Below are positions 24,401 through 45,685 of a stretch of 64,000 bases of DNA, in pieces. The notes beneath the pieces were generated by a model, which did not search any database, was not told the origin of the DNA, and was given only the letters and a program-made list of their open reading frames with translations. Position numbers and translations under genes: made by a program. Source of the DNA: Pseudovirgaria hyperparasitica (taxonomy: Eukaryota); NCBI GenBank assembly GCA_010093815.1, contig ML996583.1. One strand, given 5' to 3'. Within the stretch, counting starts at the first letter, position 1, and every line of letters begins with the position of its first letter.

Positions 24401-24637
24401 CGCAAGCGCAAGGAAGAACTCCGTGCTGGTGTGCTGAGCATTGTGGATGAGATGTGTGGAGGAGGTGGTGCGGCTCGAGTCAGCGAGGTTGTTAAGAGGC
24501 TTGGTGAGGCCGTGAGTGCTCAGATCGAGTCACAGGAGGTGATGGACGCGCTGAAGTCGTTGGAGAGCGAGGGACGCGTGATGCTTGGTGGCGATGGCGC
24601 AAGGAGGACTGTCAGGAGAGTCACGGGCGTTGTATGA
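21466..24637 (+). CDS. MCM4: DNA replication licensing factor MCM4 (Cdc54), 3 exons
   Basis: S/P-rich N-terminal tail, zinc finger, GDPSTAKSQ Walker A, CCIDEFDKM Walker B, SRFD arginine finger, TATTRQLESMIRLAEAHAK. Confidence 0.97.
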
Positions 24638-26470
24638 GCATGATAATTAAAGGTTATGTGGATTGATTGTATCAGCTGGGGGTAGCATGAGATGGCGACG
24701 ACAATGATCACGACAACGACGGCGGCATGGAATGGTATAGCATGGCATGGATTACTGTGGGTAATGAGCTCAGTGGTTTCGGTGGTGGTATCAAACCTTG
24801 TATTGTCTTTGCTCTGCTGCATGTCTACATTCTTATCATAGGCCCTCCCTCTTTTCCTCCTCTTTTCGACTTCTTTCAAGGCATTCAGGGATGCATACTA
24901 TGCGACTGATCTGCTGCTTGAGAAAACCCACATGATGGCTAAGCTCGACTCGACTCGAGATGCTGCTAGTCCTTAACACAAATTCAATTTCTGCACTCTG
25001 TTTCGAGCCAGAATTCGCTCTACGTTTGTTACCGATAGAGGGGCACTGATCTTGTAAGGGCGTTTTGGACCCCTTGGAACCTCATGTCTGTGTGCGTGTG
25101 TGTGCATGCATGCCCGAATATCGCCCGGTTTCCGCCTACGCCCTTCCGTCCCTGAGCCTGGTCCAAGCACCGGGTGCGTACTTATGAGCATGGGATTCGC
25201 TCGCAAAAGGGGTGCGTATATCTAGTACCATCCGCCACCACCGCTCTGGCCCTGCAGCCCTATAGGGTGGATCCATGCATGTCGCCGGGTGACCCTGATC
25301 AGATACACGCACAGAAATAGGACATGTCTGTTCTCCAGGGACATTGCTTATTTCTCCAAGGAGTAACCTCCCTGTCTTGATATCGTCGTCGTAGTCGGCG
25401 AGGCAGGTCAGGAAAACATTTGCGTACCGAAAGGAAAGGAATGGAGGCAGACTGACACGTGAAGACGGTATGGTTCACAGGGTGCAGGTTGTGGGACTGT
25501 GCACATGGATTCATATGCGAGAAATCTATGTGATGTGTGTGAAAGACAGTTCGATCGAGATCTAATTGGATGACGCCCTTTTCCGTTCCTTTGGATACTT
25601 ACTGTTGCTGTAAACATGGTTGGACTGCTAACGGCGGTGCTGCTCGCCGCGTGCAGGGGCTCGTCCCGGTGGATGATGATGCTAGCTAGTGAGGTGAAGG
25701 TGCTCGACGATGATGAAATATTGTTTCTTCTTCATGGAATCCTTGCATAGATTTTTTTTCCGGCATAGGGCCAGTAAAAGGAAATTTAAAGATTCAAGAA
25801 ATAGAAAGGGACCGGATCAGGGGGTCAGGGTGGGTCGTCCGGGTGTTCGCGAACCCTGATGTATTGTGATTGGAGACGCAGTAACACCTGGTACCTGACA
25901 AGGCGAGGTGAGAGAGCTACTACTGTAGCGCTTCACATATAATTAGAGATAGAATCAGATATAGCTAGAAAGATAACGGTACATAGGATATACTTTATGT
26001 ACGCCGAAGTACGCCGAAGTTCAAGACTCCGCGTATAACTCGTATACAAGCTAATACCATCTGGGTTGGTTTGGCAGGTAGGGCTAATTAGCGGCGAAAA
26101 GCAGGGAGCTCAAGCCTGCCTGTCATGTCGGCTGTGCCACGCGGGACTTTCGGTAGATCGGCGATAGTTGATCGCCTGCACGGGGTCCTAATGCAGCTGT
26201 GGATCCGCTCGCTTCTGCAGGCGCCGTTGGGAAGTGGAGCCCGTGTTGTCGTCCCCACCTAAGTAAGGTAGTAACTACCTTAGTACACTTTCGTACCATA
26301 CACACTGCACACCACTACCTACACCCACGCCCGGTAATTCCACGCTCCAGCTCCCTCTCCCACCTACTGTGCCCAACTACTGTGTGCATCAGATCTCTCG
26401 ACACTCGAGCAAAAGCTCGGACCGACTGCAAGAAAGACAAACTCATCCTCTCTGTCGATGTAGAGATACC

Positions 26471-27266
26471 ATGTCCATTGCAGCTACTAAACAAACAATG
26501 TCTTCGCCCAAGTACGAATACACCAGTCTGTCCGATTCTCACGACGAGATGAAGGAGGACGGTCTCATCGCTCGTCCTCATGCTTCCCATACTGGGATCA
26601 ATCGATGGGGCTTCTTCGCTGCCGGCGTGTTGTCGACGCTCGCTGCAGTCTTCGTCGTCTGGGTCGTCAGTCTACATGTTCACATCCCAGCACATAACTC
26701 TGAAGCTGATGGTACGTCAATGCCTTACAAAATACAAGCAAATATACATCTATTCCCCCCAATAAAATCGATCTATCTACTGCTACACAACTGAGCCAGT
26801 TTATGCCAAACTAACGAACACATCAGCTCTCCTCCTCCTCCGCAAACCACACTTCATGACACACGCCACTGAGTCCATCTACGCCGTGCCACAATCCGTG
26901 CAGTCCGACGAGGACTGGCGTCTGCTCTTCCCACTGCGCGGTGCCCGCTTCACGAGCGAGGACGAGGCTCGCCCGTTTACGCTGTCTGTCTTCCACCAGC
27001 TGCATTGTCTGGCCAGTATCCGGCGCGTGTACTTTGACCTGCAGACGGGCGAGGGCAGTGCTATTGATGCGTCGACACATGGGCATATCCGGCACTGTAT
27101 TGACTTTCTGCGGCAGGTGGTGATGTGTAATGCGGATCGCACCAAGGAGATTTATGGGACGGATAGCTTTGAGGCGCAGCATATGTGTTACGATTGGGAT
27201 GAGGTTCTGGAGAGTACGGAGCCGTGGACGTTGGCTCTTGAGGACAAGGATGAGGATGAGGAATAG
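26471..27266 (+). CDS. DUF3328/UstYa-like oxidase 1 (about 226 aa; exons 26471-26711, 26827-27266)
   Basis: N-terminal TM helix (WGFFAAGVLSTLAAVFVVWVV); SVFHQLHCL and HIRHCIDFLRQVVMCNAD = two HxxHC motifs; C-terminal HMCYDWD. Confidence 0.92.
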
Positions 27267-27412
27267 GGGGGCGCGTTATTTTGTGCTGCTAGCTCAGGCT
27301 GTGAGACAGATTGGACTTATGTCGAGTAGTATAGGGAGAAGAAATGCTTATCATGATGAAGCGAGTATTTTATGACGCACAACACGACGGAAAACTTAAT
27401 TTAAGACGTATG

Positions 27413-28390
27413 TTACAAAGTCGGATTCTTCAACACACTCATCTCCTCCGCTGAGATCTGCCTGTCTGCCGTTGATGCCATCAGCGCATCCCAATCCACA
27501 CAGCGCTCCAGGATGCGCGTGCCGTTGACCATAGGCTTCGTGCTTTTATCCCAATACATAGTGATCAGGTCTGAGACGTCAGGGTGGCACATAAGAACAG
27601 CCCTGAGCCGATCCATGCAATGGTCTGCTCCAGTCAGCTGAACAGTTTCCTGCTGGATGCCTCTTCTACATGGCCAAAAGATGGACATATCTTTTTTTAA
27701 AAAAAAAAACCAGAAAGGAACAGTGCAAAACTTACCAACATGCTCAGAAATGTACTTCACCTCATACTCGGTAGCATTGGGATAGTAGTAATCGCGGTCC
27801 TTCCACATACGCGCAAAATTCAGACAGTGCAGCTCATGAAACACGCCCAGCCAGGCAAGATAGCCACTGTCGCCGCTACCAGCATCATCAGTATCTCCGT
27901 CGCCGCCCATGGCAACGCTCGTGCGGCCATTGCGTGCCAGTTCGGCTGCGGTGACGCGGATGCGTTTGCGGTCCAGTAGCGAGTCCCACTGTGCGTCCAT
28001 GTCTGGCGTTGGCGGGCCAAAGTAGCCGCTTGTGGAGCGCAGTTCCTGTGGCGTGGATGCGTACTGGATGTCGAGGCTGGGGATGGCGAGGAGGGCTGTC
28101 TGGCCGGGTGCTGGGTAGTCTGCGGCGTGTGAGTGGAAGGGGAAGAAGGAGGCATTCGTGTAGATGTAGAGCCAGGCGAAGAAGGTGTAGCAAAAGATGA
28201 GGAGTGTGTGTATGATTACAGAGCGTGTGAGATGGGGCATTTTGGATTTTAGAGGGGTTGTGTGGGTGCGTTGGAGCCATGGAGTTGTGTCGTCGATGTC
28301 GTTGTCATCGTCGTCATTGATGGTGGTGCTGTTTATGTCGGTGTCGAAGGAGGTGGTGGATTTGAGGAGGTGGGCGTGTTCGATGGCCAT
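27413..28390 (-). CDS. DUF3328/UstYa-like oxidase 2 (about 288 aa; intron 27625-27735)
   Basis: TM helix (SVIIHTLLIFCYTFFAWLYIY), YFGPPTPDMDAQWDSLL, GYLAWLGVFHELHCL; after splicing EHVDHCMDRLRAVLMCHPD; CVDWD. Confidence 0.92.
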   Translation of the reverse strand: MAIEHAHLLKSTTSFDTDINSTTINDDDDNDIDDTTPWLQRTHTTPLKSKMPHLTRSVIIHTLLIFCYTFFAWLYIYTNASFFPFHSHAADYPAPGQTALLAIPSLDIQYASTPQELRSTSGYFGPPTPDMDAQWDSLLDRKRIRVTAAELARNGRTSVAMGGDGDTDDAGSGDSGYLAWLGVFHELHCLNFARMWKDRDYYYPNATEYEVKYISEHVGKFCTVPFWFFFLKKDMSIFWPCRRGIQQETVQLTGADHCMDRLRAVLMCHPDVSDLITMYWDKSTKPMVNGTRILERCVDWDALMASTADRQISAEEMSVLKNPTL

Positions 28391-29089
28391 GGTGTTTTGT
28401 TGGTGTGAGGTAGACTTTGATGTGCGATGGTAGGCAGTGGGAATGACTGTGGTATCGCGATTACAAGGACCACACGTCTGGAGTGTATCTTCAGTCTTGT
28501 GGATGTGGAAGCTTGCTCAGTATTCTGAGAGGCTGTAGTAGAAGGAAGGGGGACTAATCATTGACGAGGCGCATGGACCATATCCAAGCTCACGAAGAAG
28601 TGCAAGTGTATGGCTCGCCTACAGCATTTGAGGGGTTCCTGCCGTTCACGGGTGTATTACCGTTGTTTCCATATTGCCATGATGCAGAAACTAAAACTAG
28701 TCCCCAAGCCAGGGTCCCCAGTCACACTTTCATCCCGTCACGCCATGCTCCTGTCCATGCGAGGTATTCCTCGCCGATGTCAGCCTTTCCAAACGACTTT
28801 TCACCAATGATTTTTCATCCCTTCACGTCGACTTCGTTTACGGGTGCACTGTCATATCGGGCCAGAGCGGTATATCCCGTCTGTTGTGTTCGTGCATGGG
28901 CCTCGCAAAGGTACACCCCCCTTGAGGGATACCACTTCTTACGCGGGCCCAAACGTGTCATTTCAGCGCGACCCAATGGATTATTGTGAACCCTTATTGA
29001 ACTAGGTGTTCTTGATACGAGGTACTCTTCAATTGTCGTCCTAGGATAGACAGGAAGTCATGCCAAGCAGGCTGTTGGATGCAGACGCC

Positions 29090-29168
29090 GATGCTAGATG
29101 CTAGATGCTAGATGCCAGCTGCTCAGATGCTAGATGATGGATGCTGGGTCCTGGATCCCAGATGCTAA
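29090..29168. repeat. GATGCTA 7-mer tandem repeat (about 4 contiguous copies plus degenerate copies)
   Basis: gatgcta-gatgcta-gatgcta-gatgc at 29090-29115, further gatgct(a) copies to about 29168. Confidence 0.8.
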
Positions 29169-30633
29169 TGCAGGTGATCTACAGGTCCAGTGAGCAATCT
29201 GAGATCTTCATGTCAAGGTTGCATGCAGGTGATGTTCCTCCAAGGTTCGGTTCTTAGATAAGGTAAGGTTGGTATTTGAGTGCTTAGGTAATTCTAGTGT
29301 GAAGCTTTGCGTAGCGCTAGGACGCTTACGGGACTAGCGCCATCGGCCCGTTCTAGGTAGACATATCGGCGACTCAACGTCGCGGCCAGAGAAGCTGTCT
29401 TCATGTTACTTTCTACATAGTGTATCTGTCGTAAGAGACATCGTATTGACGAGTGTTCTTACACATACATCAGATCATCACCGCTCCTTGCGTCAACTCT
29501 TTTGCCTTCTTCCCAAGACGCCACCAGTCACCACCACCAGCTTCACTACCGCATCCGTACACCCTTGAGGGGTCAAGATAGTTCCTTGGAAGGCTGTGAC
29601 TCCCTTAGATCCACGAGTGTTTACGATCTTCTATTGCTCCCCCTCCCTTGGTAGCAGTATCAAAGGTAATCTGAGTCTGGGCACATCCGTCTGGTCCACA
29701 TTCATTCTCCATTCCAAGATCAGTGGTAACCACAGCGTTCTACTGGCTCGGGACCATTCCACTAGAACAGTGAGAGCAAGGCCGGAACGCCCTTCGTAGC
29801 TGGCTTTACATGGTGTTCCTGCCGCGTATGGCGCCAAGTAGTGTGGTCAAGGACGGTCACGATGGATGTACCAGAAGCTCCGTCGGCAGCGTTATTGACC
29901 CGATTCCTGCGCCCGCTATCAAAAATCTGACTCTATCTCATTGGCGTAATGCTGATAATAGTCTGGTGCTGCTCATGCAATGCATCCGGTAGGCTTTTCT
30001 ATGCGCTGCGTCCGGCTTGTTATGCTCTGATCCCGTCTGCTTGGTCCGCTTCACATCAAGACCACATATGATTGTTCAATAATTGCACCCAATGCTACTT
30101 CCATATTCCACATGAGCACAAGCCACTTCCCTCTCGGGAACTCGTCATGGGCACGTATTCGCCGGGCTCTTATCTTTTCACCCACATTCCACGCTAGCCC
30201 GACTTCCTTCATGTTTTTTGAGCGTGCTCGTTCTGCCTCCATCTTCCGATCACGTTGCGTGCGCTCTCAAACTCTTCACCTCTGGTTTACTATCCTGTTG
30301 TACGGCACAGCTTTTAGTCAGTCAGCTCTTCGTGTACGTTGGGCTCTCAACTCTGGATCCCAACCATCCATGCCATATCGGTAAAAGGAGATTCTATAAG
30401 CCTTCCCCTTCCAGACGACCAGACTCGCCACCCAGAAAACGCTTTGTTCACCGTACACCCCATTCGCCAAGCATCTCAAATACTATAAACGTCGCTCTCA
30501 CGTCCATATTTAAAATTTTCTTCCACTGCTTCTCTGTCCCAAAACCCTCGACTTACCATCCAGTCCTCACGCTTTCAAAGTACAATACCTATCAATCTCC
30601 ATTCAAGAACCAGCCAACCACTTTGATCTCAAC

Positions 30634-31372
30634 ATGCAGTTCATCACCACTGTTGCCCTTATGGCTGTTATAGCTACCGGTACTGTTGCTGCCCCTACGA
30701 AGCTTCACGTTGGTGAGTAGATCCCAATTTTCCTTGCTGCATATATACATACCAGCTTTCCACATACTAACAACTACCCAGCGCACCTCGTCTCAAAGAC
30801 TGTCGCTGATGATGATGTGGTCTATCCTGAGTACAAGCGCGGTGACACTGGTAAGCCTTTGAGCATACAGTAATTTTCCAGATAGAGCTTGCTAACGGTT
30901 TTTAGTGTCACGCAACTTGGTTGATGACGACGTAGTCTATCCTGACTATAAGCGTGGTTTGGTTGACGACGATGTTGTCTACCCTGACTACAAACGTGAC
31001 CTGGTCGACGACGATGTTGTCTACCCTGACTACAAACGTGACCTGGTCGACGACGATGTTGTCTACCCTGACTACAAACGTGACCTGGTCGATGATGACG
31101 TTGTGTATCCCGACTACAAGCGCGATCTGGTTGATGATGATGTGGTCTACCCTGACTACAAGCGCGGTCTGGTTGATGATGATGTGGTCTACCCTGACTA
31201 CAAGCGCGGTCTCGTCGATGACGATGTCGTATATCCTGACTACAAGCGCGACCTGGTTGACGACGACGTTGTTTACCCCGACTACAAGCGTGACCTGGTC
31301 GATGATGACGTTGTCTATCCCGACTACAAGCGTGACCTGGTCGATGATGACGTTGTCTATCCCGATTATTAG
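30634..31372 (+). CDS. Kex2-processed repeat protein (KEP), putative dikaritin RiPP precursor, 204 aa; exons 30634-30712, 30782-30850, 30906-31372
   Basis: Spliced: MQFITTVALMAVIATGTVAAPTKLHVAHLVSKTVADDDVVYPEYKRGDTVSR followed by 11 x (N/G/D)LVDDDVVYPDY separated by KR; signal peptide ending VAA-P; introns GTGAGT..TACTAAC..CAG and GTAAGC..GCTAAC..TAG keep frame. Confidence 0.93.
30914..31372 (+). repeat. Coding 42-bp tandem repeat x11 (precursor repeat units)
   Basis: Directly visible 42-nt periodicity; units 3 and 4 are identical at nucleotide level. Confidence 0.97.
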
Positions 31373-32284
31373 GCGTAAAAGTCATTCTCCCTTATCATTC
31401 TGACGGATTTTCCTTCATATATGGGCACGTCTCTTGATGTAAACATGGAGCTGTTGGTGCAAGAGTGTAACACTTCTTCTCCATGTTAAGAGCTGGAACA
31501 GCTATGGAATACTTTGATTGCAAGTTGCTGAGGGTCCTTTGATGGCTTAGTGTTATCATGGTCTTATAGTATCATTGACATATCAGATACATCATATCTT
31601 CATCTACCCATGTGACTACCGCATCTATTCGCCTGAACTCATTACCAATGACATACGCCATAGCTTCTTCCCACATCCATCGAACATTCAGAATCATCAT
31701 CAGTCCAGTTCTCAGCCAACCTCGTATTGCACCCAACATTCTTCACAGCCCCTCCTCTCGGAATATAAGCCACTCATCAGCAACCATAACAAACATCCAA
31801 GTCCAGAAGCGACCATCCTGCCGCAAGAAGCAACCACAGTTACCAAACTGCCTAGCTAAGCGCCGTGTATAATTTGAAATCCTCCGTGCCGCGAGCGCCG
31901 CCCAGTAGCTACTTGTTGATAACAAATTCTGTATAAGCGCCCTATAAGCGCTAAAAGTCGCGGGAAATACCCGCTGTTTGGGGGGGGGCTGTCCGGGTCC
32001 CGTCGGACATGTCAGGAGATATGTCTGACTTGGGACCGGAGCGATGTCTATAGCGTGGCATGGTATTACATTGCATGGCATGGCATGGAATGGAGGCTGA
32101 TGCGGGGGAGGACCCACAGGGCTGTGTGTGTTTGTATGTGTGTGTGTGTGCTATGGCTTGCAGGTAGGAGGTCTAGGCAGACGGACAGACAAACGAACTA
32201 TTCACTGATGGACCGTGTCTTGACGTTGGAGGAGGATGGTTTTGATTGGGGGGATTTTCCGAGGGGGGGACGGAAGGGTGTTGG

Positions 32285-32285
<1 letters not shown>

Positions 32286-32327
<42 letters not shown>
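32286..32327. repeat. (TG)21 microsatellite
   Basis: Perfect TG run. Confidence 0.95.
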
Positions 32328-32328
<1 letters not shown>

Positions 32329-32385
32329 TGATTTGAGTTTTTTGGTGAACGGGGTCGGATGGAGATGGACGGACGATGGACGATG

Positions 32386-32510
32386 GATGATGATGATGAT
32401 GATAATGATGATGATAATGATGATGATAATGATGATGATAATGATGATGATAATGATGATGATAATGATGATGATAATGATGATGATAATGATGATGATG
32501 ATGATGATGA
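32386..32510. repeat. (GAT)n / (GATGATGATAAT)x8 compound microsatellite
   Basis: GAT run with eight regularly spaced AAT interruptions. Confidence 0.95.
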
Positions 32511-33557
32511 AGGGGGGTGAGATCTTGGGCTTGGGGCTGTTGTGGTCGTTTGTGTGGGAGGGTGGTGGTGGTGTTGGTGTTTGTGTCGATGTTGTTGGTC
32601 GGATGAGGAGGTGGAGGAAGAGTAAAGTGATTTTTGGCTCTCTCTTGTGTAGTGCATGCATGCAGTGTGTAATTCCGGATTCGGGCAGGCGTCTATTGCG
32701 CTTCGCTCGCTTGGAGTGGGGAAAGTGATGTCGATGAGGAGGTACGTGGAGGTTGAAATGGGCCAATCACTTCAGACTACGCGTGTATCAGTCGTTGACA
32801 CGACACGATCAATTGTTGCCCTGGAAATAGCAAGTAATTTATGTATCAAGGGATACTCCGCCCTGTGTACCAATGTTATTGTCAGGTGATCTCCCAGGAA
32901 CGCAATAGATTCATGTTCTGAAACGCCCTCCGCAATCGTTATATGCTTCAAGGTCAAACCCTCCAGTTTCTCTGCATGGTGTTACAAGGATTCTCTGGCT
33001 GGAAGAATACAGGGCTGGTAGTTCGTACCACGTACATGTGGATCTCTGGATCATGACAGAGATGGTGCTGTGCCGTGGACGCGGCTCAACCATGCCGCTG
33101 GTAACTTCCTAGCATGGTCCTGTTGTTTAGGCTATTTTTTGGCGTTTACGTTACGCCTCCCGTGTCTAAACCTGTGCCGCGCGCCTAACTATATGCGAAG
33201 TTAGACTTCCGTCGGGGGACGTTGAAATACGAATCCGGGGGCGTATGGATAAGCCTCCGAGTGTCTGAGCCCATGTACTGTGACGGCTCTAGAGGTCACA
33301 AATCTAGACCCGGCCGAGACGGTCACGCTACAGTTTCTCTGAATACCGATGGATTGGATCGTGATGTATTGAATCGAAGACTTGATATGAAGTAGCAGAT
33401 ACATCGGGAGAAAGAGGTCCGTCGGTAGATCCACCACTCTAGTGCGGCGGCTAGCAACCCTATGTACCGCTGCAGACGTTGCGCCAACAGCGCCAACAAG
33501 CGCTCTAACGCTTTGCTATACGGAACATCGGGAACGTAGATGGTCCCGGAGCCGATA

Positions 33558-34701
33558 CTACTTCAAGTAGCGGTAGCATAGCGGACCACTATCTGTGTGC
33601 AAGATGTCACGGATACGCGTCTTAGGCCCAAGCTTATCAAGTTCCAGCTCGTCGTCGACCATAGTCCCAAAGATGGTTTCGGCACGGTGTTCTGGGTCCG
33701 CGAGCTGCCATTCTGCCCAGAGACGGTCGACCTGGCAGTGATGGAAGTAGAAGATTGGGTCTAGGAGAGATCAGTTACGATGTTCGTGTTCAAGAGAGTA
33801 ATTGGGCCATATACCGTTTGGAGAAGTGAATTCGAAGAATTCCCCCTGAATCCAGCGTGGGATGGCTTCATGTGCTGCAAACTCTAGTGTATTCCAGAAA
33901 TCGTAGTAGTCGTCCTTTTGCATGATGTCGTCGAGTTTCTCTGGTTGCAACTCTGCGCTGTACCTGTCAGACTTCTCGCCAGTCAGAAATCCTCGTGACA
34001 GACAGTGATGGGTTTCATTTGCACCGAAGCGAAGCGCCTGGTAGTGAGAGAATGGTCCTGTTTCGACACATCTTCCGTGACCCACAGACTCTTCACCTGT
34101 CCCATTGCCACCTATCCCATAAACATTGTCCCATACAGGAGCTTGATCGAGTGCTTCCCAGTCGAGAACCCAATTCCAGTATGGGATGGTGCCTTTAAAC
34201 CCACAGTGCGTCCGCAAGTCGTTCTCGAAATTGTGGAGCAGATAACGATGCCATGGCAGAAAAAGTGTTGTATCATGACCTATATCGAGTTTGTCAGAAA
34301 GTGTTCCATGATCTTTTCGAATACTTACCAATCTTGCCTGCATGGCTGTGCAAGTTTGCGTAGTCGCCGTACAGTGACTGATCGTCACGATAAAGTCCTG
34401 GAGTGGTCTGAAGGCACTTGATGGCGTCGATATACTCCAACTGTTCATCTTTGCGCAGATTACGCCATTCTCGGCGGAATTGGATCTTAGAACATCCTCC
34501 AGGCTCGCCGATATGCGTCGTCAGCGATTCAGAGTCTTCCTCAAATAGGCTGCGAGGAGAGAAAGTGAAGGCAAGCAGCAGATAGAAAATGAGGCAGGTC
34601 AAGCCTGTGGCAGATGCATACAAGAAGCGATTTGCAGTGAAGATCGACTTCTTTTGAGCAGCTTCAACTTCATAATCGAGGTCGGTCTTGAGTTCAGCCA
34701 T
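33558..34701 (-). CDS. Tyrosinase-like type-3 copper protein (UstQ/PhomQ-like), about 346 aa; introns 34280-34328, 33761-33814
   Basis: N-terminal TM anchor, C..RREWRNL..EQLEYIDAIKCL, CuA H..GHDTTLFLPWHR, IPYWNW, HCLSR, AAHEAIP, SPNDPIFYFHHCQVDRLW, LCYRY. Confidence 0.9.
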
Positions 34702-35787
34702 GATGAGTTTCAATATAACATAGTATTTGGAGGGAGCGTAGGCCGGGGACGTTGACAGAAGGGAGAGACAGCCACGCTACTCCGAAAAGAATCTGCTTAA
34801 AGAGCTGCAAAACTCTGACTCGTACCTACCTACTTTGGCTCAACGGAGAGCTTTGAAATGACGTGTGAAAACAAATAAAGCGGACACCTCAGGCACGACT
34901 GAAGAGGCACAGTATGGAATATCAACGACCACACTCTGAGGCGGTGCATGCTGATAAATACGCACAGCTCCACATGTTTGCTTTGACAGCCAAAATGGCG
35001 CTGCTCGGGCCGTCAGAGCCGCCGCCGTACGGCGTAGTCACTGTCACGTCTCAAGTCGATGTGTGATGTGTCTGATGGGAATACAATAAAGAGCTTGCTC
35101 GCCATCGTATCAAAACATTGTCGTAACACAGTCTTCACTCATCATGTACTTCACTGTAGGCGTTGGCGATGCTTTGGGGGCTCATTAAATGTGAAGGCGA
35201 AGAAAATAAGACTTACTTTCAATAAACCTTCCTTATGCTCAGACCCCTTTGCACACATTTAACATCATGCGATGTAAACGCCATCGACCTTTATCTTCGC
35301 AAACCATAACGCTTCTCTATGAATAGATTAGTGACTGATGGGCTTCCAATTCCTCTAGCAACTCTATGTTAGTATAGTATTTTAGCTTAGTACAGTAATG
35401 TATACTAAAGTTAGCTAAAATATAGTTCCGTGCACGGTGCATATATACTTAAATATAAAGTCATGCATATACATAAGCAAAAGCATATTTTTAGTGTGAT
35501 ATTCCATTGGTCTAGGAGAGAAAGTTCTATAACATGAGAGTGGTACTACTTTTCTTTCAAATCCATGGTCTGAGCTTGCTCACATAACTCGACCTGTCTT
35601 TTTACAATGTCTCACTAACCCACCACTGGCTACGAAAGTCCACAGAACATGCAGGAACTACCATGGGTGCTTGCTGGAGGACCCACTCTTCCCACACGTC
35701 AGTCCATACATATTTAGTTCTGGCATCCTCAAATGTTCTCGGTAGCCAGGCTAATTCGTTCGTGCGATCAACTCACCATTTTGTAGA

Positions 35788-37288
35788 ATGACTTCACCAG
35801 ATCCTTCCCTAGTTTCGGAGCTTACTGTAAAGGTCGCAAATCAGGCAGCCCGATATGCGGACTTTTTGAAATCTGGAGAGAACGACCAAGCTCCAGTCGT
35901 TGCTAAACAGCTCTCTGAAACCCGACTCGAGCTTCTTGGTTCCACTCGAGACCTTCACAATATCGTGCAAGGACCATTTGACTATGTTCGGGACGAACTG
36001 GCTGGCGTATGTTAAGACAAAACATCAAGTTGTGCTACTTCCTATTCTGATATTCCTAGCATTGCAACCTGATCTATCTTCATGCTGTGTACAAGTTCAA
36101 TCTGCATAAAGTCGTGCCTCTCGATGGAGACATCTCCTATCAAGAACTGGCACGCATATGCAAAGTCGAAGAAGACAAGCTTCGTCGGATTATCCGCTTC
36201 GCCATTACAAGACGCTTCTTCCAGGAGAAACGTGAGGGCTATGTCAGCCACACTGCGGAATCGAAAGTTATCATAAGCAAACCAGAAATGTTCGATTACG
36301 TCGGCACAATCTGTGAAGAGATGTGGCCTTCTGCCATACAGGTACAGCAAATCTGATATCCTGTTTGTCTGCCCGCAAATTTTGACTAACTCTCGAACTT
36401 ATAGGCTGTACCCGCTATGATCAAGTGGCCTGGGTCCGAAGAGCGAAAGCATTCGGCAGGTGATGTTGTACCCCTACCTTGTAATTTTACTAACACATAT
36501 AGGGCTCTGCTCTTGCCAATGGTAGTGAGCTTGCTATGTTTGACATACTCAAAGATCACCCTGAACGGGCGGCAAGATTCTCGCGCTTCATGAACATGTT
36601 CAGCTCGGCTCCGTTCTTTCGTTTCGATTTCCTCTGTGACGCGTATGACTGGAGCAATGTGACTAAGATGGTTGATGTCGGTGGAGGACACGGTGGACAA
36701 GCTATTGCACTCGCCCAGAAATTTACATCTCTACACTGCGTCGTCCAAGATCTTGCAGTCATTGACACCGAAAACGAAGCCTCAGAGAGAATTCCTGTTG
36801 AACTCCGGAGCAGGGTCGAGTTTCAGGGCCACAACTTCTTTTCGGAACAGCCTATCAAGGATGCAGATGTCTATCACTTCCGCTGGATTTTCCACGACTG
36901 GTCAGACAAGGATTGTGTAGCGATTCTCCGGGCTCTTATTCCAGCTCTTAAACCCGGCGCGAAGGTCATCATATCCGAAGGCGTCATTCCACGGCCTGGA
37001 ACAGTATCTCGCTACGTAGAAGGGACCATGAGGTGAGTTCCCTGAGGTCCCTGATTTCCCGTGCTACACGAAAATGAGTGCCGCACAAGTTTGTCATGCC
37101 ATGCGAATGCTAACATTCATGTTAGAGTTATGGATCTTGTGATGATGGAACTAAATAACGGCAAAGAACGAGATATGATTCAATGGAAGAATCTGTTTGA
37201 GACTGCCGACGAACGCTTCAGTCTTGAGGCTGTCAAGAAAGTAGAGGGATCCAGATTGTCATACATCATATACAACTGGACTGGCTAG
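35788..37288 (+). CDS. SAM-dependent O-methyltransferase (Methyltransf_2 family), about 414 aa, 5 exons
   Basis: Dimerisation region (LRRIIRFAI..FFQE..GYVSHTAES), VDVGGGHG SAM motif, HNFFSEQPIKDADVYHFRWIFHDWSD, NGKER. Confidence 0.92.
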
Positions 37289-37999
37289 ACGAATGCCATG
37301 ATACGATTCATGGACTAATCGATTCATCGCGTGAAAGGTTGCTAGAAGAGCTTGTGTATGGGCATAGAGTGTTAACCATGAGCTGCATGATAGCTGTTTC
37401 GAACATTGTAGTACGATGGCGTTGTACACGAGGAATACAAAAAATTTCACAAAACCCACGACGAATATCCTCGAAGACTGATGCCACTAATGAAGGATAT
37501 CGAACAATGTGTCATGGTTATCAGAATATTGACGTCTGGAAATCCTGACGGTAGGCTGGAGACGCGCCAAGACCACCTAGCCGGTCGGCCCCCAAATCAA
37601 CTCCATCACAGCTGAACAAAGGCAGAAGAAGCGGTTGTCTGCCTCTATTTACATTGGGAAGACCAATTTCTAATTTGATAGCCGTTGGTTTACAGACATG
37701 TTTTCAAGCAAAGACTTAAAGTCTCGATTTGATCGAGTCTCGGCAAAAACGCTCTCCGTTGGCGCTAGACAGTACCTAAGGAGTGTCAGTGAATATAAAG
37801 TAAGTACATCTAACACGTCCGACCTGGGATGTGTATGGAGCCGAGCCTCGTTATTGGCTCATGTTAAAGACCTCATCTTCATGCTGTCGCTCCGATTTGC
37901 ACGCCCCGCTTCCGCTTTTTCCACTACTTTGAAATTTACAACCAATGTCCTGGATTTGAAGTCTAGAAAGTCAGGATTCTGCGTTTATTATCTGACATA

Positions 38000-40177
38000 T
38001 TGCAGACTAAAGATCTCGCGGCGTTCACATACAGTCCACTTACTGGGCCGAGATGCATCCGGCTATTGCACATACAGGCCGGAGGAGACACTGATGCATT
38101 AACATGTGATGTCTCTGAGGTTGACCTGGATGCTGAACCAATTTTTGAAGCTTTATCGTACACGTGGGACCAGGATCACGCGTGGGATAACGAACCAGAA
38201 CCAGAATCAGAACGAAAGAGAAAGCCTATTCTATGTAACGGCCAATCTTGTGAGGTCACCATGAACTTGTATCATGCTCTCACAGAGTTTCGACGACGGA
38301 AGATGTACTCCCCTATCTGGATTGATCAGATTTGTATAAACCAAAAAGATGACCAAGAAAAGAATCTTCAGCTCGGCCTAATGGCTGAAATCTACAGGTC
38401 GGCGGTCCGAGTTATAGTCTGGCTCGGAATTATGTCTAAGACGAGAAATTCTGCGTTGGACTTCCTATTGGCTCTGCCTCCATTACCTGAGATAGACCAG
38501 TTACGTCGATCAAAATCCGTGCCAATGGTAGCTGAAGAAACAGATATGTCAGCCCCTTCTCAGCTGCCAGCACGCCCTAAAATGAGCAAGATTAGCCGCT
38601 CGTTTGATGTGATCAATACAGTTTCCAATGTACTCAGTGAGCAATACCACTGGCTCGGAGTTCTGCGTCTGTTGCGACGAAGCTGGTTCAACCGGACGTG
38701 GACTCTGCAGGAACTACTTCTCGCGCAAGACCTGCTGATAATGATGGGAGATCGTGATATACCCCCAGCAGTTCTTGCTGACGCTTCGAAGAGAGTCGTG
38801 GACTTCTACGCGAACGATCCCCTGATGTTCTCGGAGGGAGTGGGCCGAGATATCATCGATCGCCACCGCTACATGGACAGGATTCCAGCTTTTTTCAAGG
38901 CTAAAGAAGACTTTAAGCAAGGAAAGCGGTTTACCGCTGAGGACTACCTTTCCACCATCAGAGTACGCGGTGTTACGAACCCAAGAGATAAGGTCATCGC
39001 CGGTAAGGCAATTCTGGAGCACGATGTTGTGCCGGTAGCGGATTTTGATGCCCCTACCGCCAATATATTTATCAACTTTGCACATGTCCTTTATGAAGAT
39101 ACTGGAGTCTTTTCACTTTCGTTGGTTGGCGATACAGCTCCTGCAATAGCAGGCCTCCCCTCATGGGTTCCAGATCTGGTCCGCCCGTTGAGGCCGACAC
39201 CTTTGAAATATTGTGGCTGCTCAAGTTTCGATTCTCCGATTCCTGTACAGGGCAATGACATTAGGTTCGAAGACAAGACAATACATTTACGAGGCGCGAA
39301 ATGGGATGTGGTACGGGACATCGGTGAGACCAGTTGGAGCTGGGAATATTCTCTGTGGTATTTCATTCCTTACGACAAGCCGCCTGTGCCAATGCGAACA
39401 TGCTGGACTGATAACAAGGAACGATTCGGAGATATCTTCCCAGTACTAGAGCAGATGGGACCCATCTACAAGCCTACCGGAGAGCGGACAGCCGATGCAT
39501 TCTGGAAGACGCTGATCGGCAATATCCAATCGCAAAGTGCCAACGATGATGAGGCGTGGGGAGAGAGCTTCCGATTATACCTTTCATTCTCGCTCTGGCA
39601 GATCCGTCAGCTCGCTCAGCACAAGGACAATCCCATCATCAAGCTAGTAGACGGTTCTGATAAATGGCTGCCAAGCATAGTGACCGATGCGATCGAGGCG
39701 CTGGAGCACCGTCTCGCGCTCTACATGGCTCTAGACGAAGTCCAACACGACGAGACAAACACACCAAGGACATCGCTGCGCCAAACAATCCTCGACTTCG
39801 CACGCCGGATCTTCGGTACCGAGAATCTCAGCGAACTCAGCGCGTGGAAGGGCTACAAGGCCGAGACGAGCTCTGCCCTGCACGACAAAGGCCTGTATGA
39901 ACAAGTCCAGCTCTTCGGCAATGCCTTCACCCAGGTCTACGACGGACGAAGGATTCTGGTCTCGGAGAAGGGGTACATGGGCATCGCGCCAGAGTCCGTC
40001 AAGGTGGGAGATGTCATCTTCCTGGTTGCTGGGGCTGGGACGCCGTATGTCTTCAGACCCGTCAAAGACGTCGAGAACACATACACCCTGGTCGGCGAGG
40101 CCTATCTCCACGGCCTAACTCCCGACATCGTGTCTGCAGAGGGCGAGTGGAAAGTAGAAAGCATTACAGTGATATAA
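38000..40177 (+). CDS. HET-domain (HET-6-like) heterokaryon incompatibility protein; start uncertain
   Basis: IRLLHI, FEALSYTW, IWIDQICINQ..EKNLQLGLMAEIY..AVRVIVWLG, WFNRTWTLQE, LPSWVPD, C-terminal GYMGIAP..GD..PYVFRP..LVGEAYLHG. Confidence 0.88.
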   Translation: MQTKDLAAFTYSPLTGPRCIRLLHIQAGGDTDALTCDVSEVDLDAEPIFEALSYTWDQDHAWDNEPEPESERKRKPILCNGQSCEVTMNLYHALTEFRRRKMYSPIWIDQICINQKDDQEKNLQLGLMAEIYRSAVRVIVWLGIMSKTRNSALDFLLALPPLPEIDQLRRSKSVPMVAEETDMSAPSQLPARPKMSKISRSFDVINTVSNVLSEQYHWLGVLRLLRRSWFNRTWTLQELLLAQDLLIMMGDRDIPPAVLADASKRVVDFYANDPLMFSEGVGRDIIDRHRYMDRIPAFFKAKEDFKQGKRFTAEDYLSTIRVRGVTNPRDKVIAGKAILEHDVVPVADFDAPTANIFINFAHVLYEDTGVFSLSLVGDTAPAIAGLPSWVPDLVRPLRPTPLKYCGCSSFDSPIPVQGNDIRFEDKTIHLRGAKWDVVRDIGETSWSWEYSLWYFIPYDKPPVPMRTCWTDNKERFGDIFPVLEQMGPIYKPTGERTADAFWKTLIGNIQSQSANDDEAWGESFRLYLSFSLWQIRQLAQHKDNPIIKLVDGSDKWLPSIVTDAIEALEHRLALYMALDEVQHDETNTPRTSLRQTILDFARRIFGTENLSELSAWKGYKAETSSALHDKGLYEQVQLFGNAFTQVYDGRRILVSEKGYMGIAPESVKVGDVIFLVAGAGTPYVFRPVKDVENTYTLVGEAYLHGLTPDIVSAEGEWKVESITVI

Positions 40178-44870: not shown

Positions 44871-45685
44871 CTACAAGCCGACCACCGCGATGGTTCCCAT
44901 CAAAGCCCCAACCGCAGTCAGTCCAGCCCTTGTGTAATTATAGTATCTCCAATTACAGACCAACTTACGTAGATTCTCTTCTTCACCAAACTTAGAATCT
45001 ACGGCCTTGGCATGTAGATCCTCGGTCGTATTCGCCATGAAGAACATGGTGAAAGGCACGAATGCCGGTATAAAGACCGCAGCTCCTGTATAGAGCTCGA
45101 ACGCATACGAACTATGACGCAGAGGGTGTTTCCCGGCTGTACAGCCGTAATTAGCAAGTGCAATGCCAAGGACTATTTGACGAGAAAAGGCATCAAATGT
45201 CTCATGCGCAACGTGTGCTTCATTGGAGCAGACAGAAAAGCTGATAAGACTTCGATGAGATCGACAACCCACTCACCGTCAGTAGCAAGATATGAAAACG
45301 CCAGCGCCGAGGCCAGAGTAACCGACAGCGCTATCCGTCTTCCAAGGTCGTGCAGTTCGTTCCATTGCCGTGCAAGAATTGGCGCGGGCGATAGATGTAG
45401 TGGTGGGATGGCTGCATAGCTAATTGTGCTGAAGCCGCCTGTTTGGTGCATTAGCTTGGGTAGGTCAACACATGACAGCCAGAAGGAGATTCTGTCGATC
45501 CATTTGATCGCATGATGTTCACCAGCCTTGGGACTGAGATGGCTAGCAGATGCGGCTAAGTGATGGCTCGCCGGATTTGATAAGAACTGATATGTGTAAG
45601 ACAGCGACATACCGGTAATGAAGGCGGATGTTGTGATGCCTACGACTTGGGCAATTCGGAGAGATGCTGGGAGTTGTGACGTCAT
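44871..45685 (-). CDS. DUF1772 / anthrone oxygenase-like membrane protein, 3 exons
   Basis: AQVVGITTSAFITG, ILARQW..L...G, FVPFTMFFMANT, LVCNWRYYNYTRA pattern. Confidence 0.7.

Follow-up and report, generated by a model that had tools for sequence, protein, structure and literature searches.

A probable dikaritin-type RiPP gene cluster with a YPDY-repeat precursor in the dothideomycete Pseudovirgaria hyperparasitica

A five-gene locus of the ustiloxin early-step kind

Does the genome of the dothideomycete Pseudovirgaria hyperparasitica, a mycoparasite of rust sori (PMC3317363), encode a functional pathway for a peptide made by ribosomes and modified after translation (RiPP) of the dikaritin type, and would its product be new? 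The question is raised by five genes that span 10.8 kb (26471-37288) of a 64,000-nucleotide stretch of contig ML996583.1 (assembly GCA_010093815.1), which we call the window. They are two UstYa/DUF3328 genes (UstYa-1 and UstYa-2), a repeat precursor gene, a tyrosinase-like gene and a PF00891 methyltransferase gene; position 26471 is the ATG of UstYa-1 and position 37288 the stop of the methyltransferase. An initial annotation, made from the letters alone, had placed two DUF3328/UstYa genes, a KR repeat precursor, a tyrosinase-like gene and a methyltransferase within about 11 kb, and Pfam, the gene models and the coordinates agree with it. By analogy with characterised clusters, this is probably a functional dikaritin-type ('ust-RiPS', ustiloxin/phomopsin-type) cluster of P. 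hyperparasitica, reduced to five genes, and its product is probably a new modified peptide of a known class.

Gene models were built from splice consensus, the introns of the window being short and of the GT..AG kind, and 11 stop-to-stop open reading frame (ORF) pieces of the cluster were scanned with Pfam. All four enzymes scored above the curated cut-offs of PF11807, PF00264 and PF00891, the families that the initial annotation had proposed to check. UstYa-1 (26471-27266, + strand, 226 residues; exons 26471-26711 and 26827-27266) matches PF11807 with 66.4 bits (E 4.5e-18, cut-off 25) in the ORF piece 26766-27266(+). UstYa-2 (27413-28390, - strand, 288 residues; exons 28390-27736 and 27624-27413) matches the same family with 103.4 bits (E 2.1e-29, cut-off 25) in the piece 27413-28516(-). 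The spliced models each carry two HxxHC motifs, HQLHC and HIRHC in UstYa-1 and HELHC and HVDHC in UstYa-2, the last of which arises only on splicing. Each protein also has an N-terminal hydrophobic (transmembrane) segment, at residues 48-66 (mean 2.40) and 58-76 (mean 2.01), respectively, taken here and below as the best 19-residue Kyte-Doolittle mean. No Pfam family was found in 5 of the 11 pieces, among them the repeat exon of the precursor, and one piece gave only a sub-threshold match to NinB.

Four of the five features that Ding et al. use to recognise dikaritin clusters, as quoted in PMC12048977, are present: a repeat precursor with a leader or signal, multiple DUF3328 proteins with two HxxHC motifs, a tyrosinase gene and a methyltransferase gene. 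The fifth, a transporter or peptidase gene, is absent from the 88 ORFs of at least 110 amino acids that were scanned with Pfam outside the five genes of the window; it was dropped in later definitions (PMC12048977). Genes for a cytochrome P450 or a flavin monooxygenase were not found in that scan either. On one side, it identified trehalose-phosphate synthase, a kinase, condensin, elongin A, THOC7 and MCM4, which ends at 24637; on the other, a HET-domain gene from 37967, GH43, ribosomal protein L44, a Src1/Man1-type protein, GH131, a UBR-box protein, MCM2 and NIF3. Because the flanks are made of housekeeping or unrelated genes, and the scan showed no peptidase, transporter, regulator, P450 or flavin monooxygenase, we take the cluster to be a five-gene island of 10.8 kb.

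The precursor and selection on its repeat

The precursor gene (30634-31372, + strand; exons 30634-30712, 30782-30850 and 30906-31372, separated by GT..CTAAC..AG introns) encodes 204 residues. An N-terminal hydrophobic, signal-like segment (judged from the sequence rather than by a signal-peptide predictor) is followed by one VADDDVVYPEY unit and 11 units xLVDDDVVYPDY, where x is D, G or N. The protein holds 12 units and 11 KR sites, and the final unit runs to the stop (...YPDY-stop). The codon table and Tandem Repeats Finder place the array of 11 units, 42 nucleotides each with KR, at 30914-31369(+); the program itself reports a single array at 30918-31359 with a period of 42, 10.5 copies, 88% matches and no indels. 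A signal-like N-terminus and tandem repeats set off by dibasic sites are both features of Kex2-processed repeat proteins (KEPs). The full linear unit, DLVDDDVVYPDY, has a calculated [M+H]+ of 1427.621. For linear YPDY the calculated value is 557.224, which would become 555.209 with -2H, 571.204 with +O-2H and 585.219 with +O-2H+CH2; for linear VVYPDY it is 755.361, or 783.356 with +O-2H+CH2.

The repeat is under selection at the amino-acid level. Across the 11 units, positions 2-14 of the 14 are invariant in residue, with synonymous codon variation at each of them. Compared in pairs, the units show 341 codon differences that are synonymous and 31 that are not, the latter without exception at position 1 (D/G/N). 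As the residues stay fixed despite the synonymous variation, selection acts on the peptide LVDDDVVYPDY-KR itself.

A word-indexed protein search with the repeat exon gave no match at E ≤ 0.001 among proteins of 84-270 amino acids, and a search of the ESM Atlas with it gave no usable match. In an exhaustive search of representative proteins the closest match to the precursor was only 36% identical. The word-indexed and the exhaustive search together indicate that the precursor is apparently missing from both public protein sets, unlike the neighbouring tyrosinase-like and methyltransferase proteins, which are found there at 100% identity.

Transcription and splicing of the five genes

Contigs from four sequencing runs were examined over 25500-38500. 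Runs X1 and X2 are DNA-like and may be the source of the window; X3 and X4, whose kind is unstated, come from one other sample and another study. All 10 coding-region introns of the five genes are skipped in contigs of X3, X4 or both, at GT..AG or GC..AG ends, and none of these joints occurs in contigs of X1 or X2, which identifies X3 and X4 as RNA-derived. Since every predicted intron is skipped in these runs, all five genes are transcribed and spliced.

The intron of UstYa-1 (26712-26826) is skipped in both X3 and X4, as are the four introns of the methyltransferase. For the tyrosinase-like gene, intron 33761-33814 is skipped in X3 and X4 and intron 34280-34328 in X3. The introns of UstYa-2 (27625-27735) and of the precursor (30713-30781 and 30851-30905) are skipped in X3 only, at contig depths, which cannot rank the genes, of 4 and 5.9, respectively. 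Stretches without X3 or X4 cover (31576-32443 and 35048-35481) are uninformative by themselves. The ustiloxin/phomopsin-type architecture claimed by the initial annotation is thus borne out by both Pfam and spliced RNA-derived contigs, and it matches the gene set of the early steps of ustiloxin synthesis, in which ustQ, ustYa and ustYb yield the first intermediate and the addition of ustM the next (PMC6514808).

A second cluster in metagenomic contigs

When metagenome contigs were scanned with the tyrosinase alignment, 80 loci came up, totalling 600 kb and many of them short. Local tblastn searches with the spliced models matched UstYa in four of them (L028, L029, L040 and L059, of which L028 and L029 are apparently copies of one stretch) and the methyltransferase in one, L040. 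Within approximately 6.5 kb, this locus carries a methyltransferase gene of PF00891, one for UstYa, a small one that encodes a signal peptide, a second UstYa gene and a tyrosinase-like gene in which the His-to-Pro change of the window (see below) recurs. The tyrosinase-like proteins of the two clusters are 47% identical, the methyltransferases 40%, and the C-terminal parts of UstYa about 40%. The small gene looks like a precursor: an intron follows directly after the signal peptide, as in the window, and two units end in ...GDEY before RR or the stop. L040 thus shares with the window all five kinds of genes, the modified tyrosinase-like protein, the Tyr-ending units and a precursor intron just behind the signal peptide, and differs from it in having two units only, a core of V-N/D-F-D/E-S/A-V-G-D-E-Y and another gene order. 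Since its core is different, it supports the cluster type rather than a YPDY family.

Pattern searches over the 80 loci single out the same place. Only one locus has an ORF in which a dibasic site or stop is twice preceded by an acidic-Tyr ending, and it does so at the L040 precursor; paired HxxHC motifs were likewise found in L040 alone, with a filter that drops motifs adjoining a stop codon. A pair of PD(x)Y[KR]R sites no more than 40 residues apart was found in none of the 80 loci. A general scan of these loci for dibasic-rich repeats gave 27 ORF entries and no convincing precursor, and the UstYa-bearing loci L028 and L059 had no repeat ORF.

L040 bears on an alternative in which the precursor is an ordinary Kex2-processed secreted protein that yields unmodified linear acidic peptides (signals, pheromone-like or surface peptides), while the neighbouring oxidases and methyltransferase serve other ends. 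Most KEPs do lack the partners seen here: of 7878 catalogued, 1758 (22%) have a DUF3328 neighbour (PMC7329392), and the tyrosinase-like genes related to ours mostly stand without UstYa in the metagenome. We nevertheless consider linear peptides quite improbable, given that five genes of the ustiloxin early-step kinds are packed into 10.8 kb between housekeeping genes and that the same five kinds surround a Tyr-ending repeat peptide in L040. Moreover, DUF3328 genes are enriched near KEP genes, and tyrosinase genes accumulate only where DUF3328 is present (PMC7329392).

The tyrosinase-like enzyme and its copper site

The tyrosinase-like gene (33558-34701, - strand, 346 residues; exons 34701-34329, 34279-33815 and 33760-33558) matches PF00264 twice, with 75.5 and 38.4 bits (cut-off 22.6), in the ORF piece 33558-34520(-). 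The initial annotation had called it anchored in the membrane, which fits an N-terminal hydrophobic segment at residues 27-45 (mean 1.87). The model is 100% identical to P0001, a 346-residue 'Di-copper centre-containing protein [Pseudovirgaria hyperparasitica]', and its best non-self relative is 49% identical. Among solved structures of tyrosinases, catechol oxidases and hemocyanins, 52 match it at E ≤ 0.001.

Its copper site departs from the six-histidine pattern of type-3 copper proteins. The residues that we take to be the copper ligands are H118, H126 and H135 in CuA and H261 and H286/H287 in CuB; five of the canonical histidines are kept, and Pro265 stands at the position of the second CuB histidine, opposite a histidine of the hemocyanin CuB sites in the sequences of solved structures. 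In 24 aligned relatives this column holds Pro in 17, Ser in 4 and His in 3, with the other five histidines and the flanking motifs conserved. Among the 43 of the 80 metagenome loci in which the motif was located, Pro occurs in 22, Ser in 6, Thr in 2 and His in 11. These proteins outline a fungal tyrosinase-like subfamily with Pro, Ser or Thr in place of the second CuB histidine (21 of the 24 relatives and 30 of the 43 loci). UstYa was not matched near most of the metagenome loci of this subfamily.

The change bears on how the tyrosinase partner contributes to cyclisation, and it raises an alternative to tyrosine hydroxylation. The protein could use single-copper chemistry, act as a scaffold for UstYa or oxidise other residues, and the product would then be a phenol-O ether like that of asperipin, to which no hydroxyl has been added, or an unprecedented scaffold. 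Besides the frequency of Pro among relatives and located loci, its presence in the window and in all UstYa-linked loci (L028/L029, L040 and L059) speaks for this, as does asperipin-2a, whose ethers from Tyr to beta-carbons are made with a UstYa homologue in a four-gene cluster that has no tyrosinase (PMC6514808). Yet the rest of the site is intact in the relatives, and, as the background frequency of Pro is close to one half, its occurrence in three of three independent UstYa-linked loci falls short of significance. If UstQ and PhomQ share the substitution, moreover, Pro would simply be the normal state of RiPP tyrosinases. On balance we think it unlikely that the enzyme does something other than hydroxylate tyrosine.

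The methyltransferase and its pairing with UstYa

The methyltransferase gene (35788-37288, + strand, 414 residues; exons 35788-36006, 36060-36341, 36405-36455, 36503-37032 and 37126-37288) matches Methyltransf_2 (PF00891), the cation-independent O-methyltransferase family, with 90.6 bits (cut-off 22.3) in the ORF piece 36503-37036(+). It has the S-adenosylmethionine motif VDVGGGHG at residue 241 and FHDWSD, with the histidine of HDW, at 314, and lacks a strongly hydrophobic segment on the Kyte-Doolittle scale. The model is 100% identical to P0175, a 414-residue 'O-methyltransferase' of P. hyperparasitica. Its third intron (36456-36502, 47 nucleotides) is of the GC..AG kind, on which the RNA-derived contigs and the public protein concur. 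A pseudogene was also considered and rejected: a model restricted to GT..AG introns broke the frame at exon 3, and the 47-nucleotide GC..AG skip in the contigs restores it.

The best non-self relative is 54% identical, and most of the best 120 of 142 matches bear generic names. A PF00891 enzyme could equally well methylate a catechol oxygen or an amine. At least seven of these 120 relatives, mostly from Xylariales, have a UstYa domain (PF11807) in the same gene model. The fused models (P0176, P0178, P0180, P0182, P0183, P0184 and P0216) come from Xylariales and Neopestalotiopsis, and the UstYa part of one of them shares 18 of 31 residues with UstYa-1 around the second HxxHC motif. They are probably adjacent genes merged by annotation; if so, the pairing of methyltransferase and UstYa is conserved in these fungi.

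Relatives of the precursor in other fungi

The exhaustive search with the precursor gave 145 matches at E ≤ 0.001, mostly long, repetitive proteins of low identity. In eight of them, [YW]P[DE](x)Y with a dibasic or KQ pair behind it occurs at least twice. These eight are short, as is a ninth, and those that are complete start with a signal-like segment. The relative in Sclerotinia nivalis has four units ending in VVYPDY-RR or VIYPDY-RR, and that of Botrytis cinerea (BCIN_03g05260, 'Secreted protein') has VVYPDY-RR, VVYPEY-QR and IIYTDY-RR. Among lichen-forming fungi, Xylographa vitiligo has six units ending in AVAYPDGY-KR and Seirophora scorigena has AIAYPDAY-KR; Rusavskia elegans is also among the sources of these short relatives, and further records show AVAYPDSY-KR and VAWPDY-KR. 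In the common pattern, two acidic residues and a small one are followed by V/I, A/V, Y/W, P, D, an optional residue, Y and a dibasic site. This suggests a wider family of YPD(x)Y peptides in plant pathogens and lichen fungi.

Neither the identifier BCIN_03g05260 nor the motifs of the relatives in a fungal context were found in the searchable text of papers. On chromosome 3 of Sclerotinia sclerotiorum, a candidate RiPP cluster has been described that includes paired DUF3328 genes and is co-expressed and induced on infection (PMC6941272). The Botrytis relative bears a chromosome-3 identifier, and a correspondence between the two is a lead only.

Comparison with described clusters

The ustiloxin cluster of Aspergillus flavus (ustA, ustQ, ustYa, ustYb, ustM) is the closest in kind, with a secreted multi-copy precursor cut at KR, two UstYa proteins, a tyrosinase-family protein and a methyltransferase. 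The 14-residue unit of our precursor is similar in length to the 13/14-mers into which UstA is thought to be first cut by Kex2 (PMC6514808). The two differ in the core, YPDY or VVYPDY here and Y-A/V-I-G there, and in the P450, flavin monooxygenase, pyridoxal phosphate enzyme, transporter and regulator that the Pfam scan of the window lacks. The Pro at one CuB histidine may be a further difference. The tyrosinase is indispensable for the cyclisation of both ustiloxin and phomopsin (PMC7329392), and their core is Y-x-I-x, with the ring between Tyr and Ile (PMC7329392). Every unit of our precursor reads Y-P-D-Y or Y-P-E-Y, with no Ile at i+2. The claim of the initial annotation that the unit xLVDDDVVYPDY differs from known cores therefore stands.

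In phomopsin, the core runs directly up to the KR site, like YPDY here. That cluster (phomA, phomQ, phomM) also resembles ours in its KR-flanked core repeats, essential tyrosinase and methyltransferase; PhomM methylates the N-terminal amine (PMC6514808). It has five DUF3328 genes against two here, a different core, and an S41 peptidase and a zinc-finger regulator that were not found in the window. The asperipin-2a cluster (aprA, aprY, aprR, aprT) has a core, FYYTGY, with aromatic residues at positions 3 and 6, as in VVYPDY, and ethers from Tyr side chains to beta-carbons (PMC6514808). It contains one UstYa, a reductase and a transporter, and neither a tyrosinase nor a methyltransferase. Finally, the 'Clan R1' clusters of lichens, compared by description only, have two UstY proteins with HxxHC, a tyrosinase and an O-methyltransferase (PMC12048977), and relatives of both our precursor and our methyltransferase occur in lichen-forming fungi. 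A repeat precursor was not found in that study, which reports an FGE-sulfatase gene as conserved (PMC12048977). Annotation-based genome mining would miss unannotated precursors, and this may explain those not found in the lichen clusters.

Could the locus then be an orthologue of a characterised cluster (ustiloxin, phomopsin, asperipin, victorin or epichloecyclin), with a known product? The gene kinds are those of early ustiloxin synthesis, but the core is neither YAIG, YVIG or YVIP nor FYYTGY (PMC7329392, PMC6514808), and the best non-self relatives of the tyrosinase-like protein and, among the matches listed, of the methyltransferase are 49% and 54% identical, respectively. We also found no mention of VVYPDY, DDDVVYPDY or VYPDY, and no link of P. 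hyperparasitica to RiPPs, in searchable paper text, which takes in neither supplements nor most subscription journals; bare YPDY appeared, among the matches listed, in unrelated contexts only. The searchable literature on DUF3328 and dikaritins, including papers since 2023, held nothing closer. A known product is thus very improbable. With 1758 KEPs with DUF3328 neighbours already catalogued, a further predicted cluster is less exceptional, and the finding extends a known class without opening a new one. It stands out all the same through direct evidence that its genes are transcribed, the wider family of YPD(x)Y peptides, the non-canonical copper site and the possible link to the lichen clusters.

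Proposed route to the product and weight of the evidence

Under the reading that we prefer, a dikaritin-type cluster, the 204-residue precursor would enter the secretory pathway, where housekeeping Kex2 would cut after each of the 11 KR sites to give 12 near-identical peptides of 12 to 14 residues, and a carboxypeptidase would trim the KR. The two membrane-anchored UstYa oxidases and the tyrosinase-like protein would then crosslink a Tyr side chain to a beta-carbon to close a macrocycle, and the PF00891 methyltransferase would add at least one methyl group. The acidic N-terminal xLVDDD may be a recognition or spacer sequence that is removed by proteases. What the relatives examined keep most consistently is Y/W-P-D and the Tyr immediately before the dibasic site or stop, so that our guess for the core falls on the C-terminal YPDY (or VVYPDY).

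For the linkage, our first but tentative choice, with chances somewhat short of even, is an ustiloxin-like ring from Tyr9, via an oxygen supplied by the tyrosinase-like enzyme, to Asp11 at i+2. Such a link needs a tyrosinase, its ring oxygen being the added meta-oxygen. An asperipin-2a-like link from the oxygen of the C-terminal Tyr12 back to Pro10 or Tyr9 is a possibility that we regard as more doubtful, and some other linkage would be unlikely.

Several points weigh against the cluster reading or parts of it. We infer the product and its crosslink chemistry by analogy only, and the Y-x-I that ustiloxins and phomopsins have (PMC7329392) is missing from the core. Given the proline at the second CuB histidine, the tyrosine hydroxylation expected of a canonical tyrosinase may not be what this enzyme carries out. 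Expression is seen in one sample, with the joints of the precursor and UstYa-2 at low depth and in X3 only. The full gene set occurs in only 1 of the 80 metagenome loci with a related tyrosinase, many of them short, and there the core is not YPDY. Among the relatives, one has Trp and others have Ser or Thr at positions that we treat as conserved. The 64-kb window shows no peptidase, transporter or regulator among its scanned ORFs. The names ustM and phomM do not occur among the 120 of 142 methyltransferase matches listed, which leaves N-methylation without support by name.

A bolder version is that the locus belongs to a dikaritin subfamily of its own, as the first member whose expression has been verified. 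Its units would end in Tyr at a Kex2 site with the pattern [DE][DE]-x-[VI]-[AV]-[YW]-P-D-(x)-Y, its minimal set of five genes would include a five-histidine tyrosinase-like enzyme, and its macrocycle (a Tyr-Asp, Tyr-Pro or Tyr-Tyr ether, not Tyr-Ile) would be new to fungi. We see this as possible, though less than probable. If true, clusters that have gone unrecognised would be marked by this peptide family in lichen-forming fungi, Botrytis cinerea and Sclerotinia nivalis, and the 'missing precursor' of the lichen Clan R1 clusters could be of this kind and unannotated. Phomopsins and ustiloxins are tubulin inhibitors (PMC7329392), the former targeting the vinca domain (PMC6514808). Since dikaritins include such potent antimitotic peptides, new cores can mean new macrocyclic scaffolds and possibly new bioactivities. 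The cluster is small and clean (five genes, all transcribed, within housekeeping bounds), which makes it convenient for testing a UstYa pair and a tyrosinase-like protein on a substrate other than Y-x-I.

Minor features of the locus and its flanks

The tyrosinase-like transcript has a long 3' untranslated part (32871-33557, - strand, roughly 600 nucleotides) in contigs of both X3 and X4. It contains an intron with two alternative donors, 32972-33028 (57 nucleotides, joint 32971/33029) in X3 and 32972-33035 (64 nucleotides, joint 32971/33036) in X4, with CT..AC ends. Between the precursor and the tyrosinase-like gene, di- and trinucleotide microsatellites occupy 32119-32521 (CA-type runs, with a long run that translates as poly-Ile or poly-His), and the DNA contigs are interrupted in this region.

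Between UstYa-2 and the precursor, a stretch that we do not count as part of the cluster is transcribed without splicing (28457-29223, strand unassigned). It is covered by an X3 contig over its whole length at depth 13.6, above that of the UstYa-2 contig, and by an X4 contig at 28665-29221. Its longest frame (28558-28986(+), 143 amino acids) has no Pfam family, and the stretch might represent a long leader or a non-coding RNA, or hold a small gene specific to this species. Beside the cluster, the region of the HET-domain gene (37800-40177) has an intron at 37800-38005 (206 nucleotides) in RNA-derived contigs, whose depths of 1477.7 (X3) and 590.2 (X4) are far above those of the cluster genes. 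About 7.6 kb beyond the cluster, among housekeeping genes, an ORF piece at 44874-45272(-) matches the anthrone oxygenase family (PF08592) with 48.4 bits.

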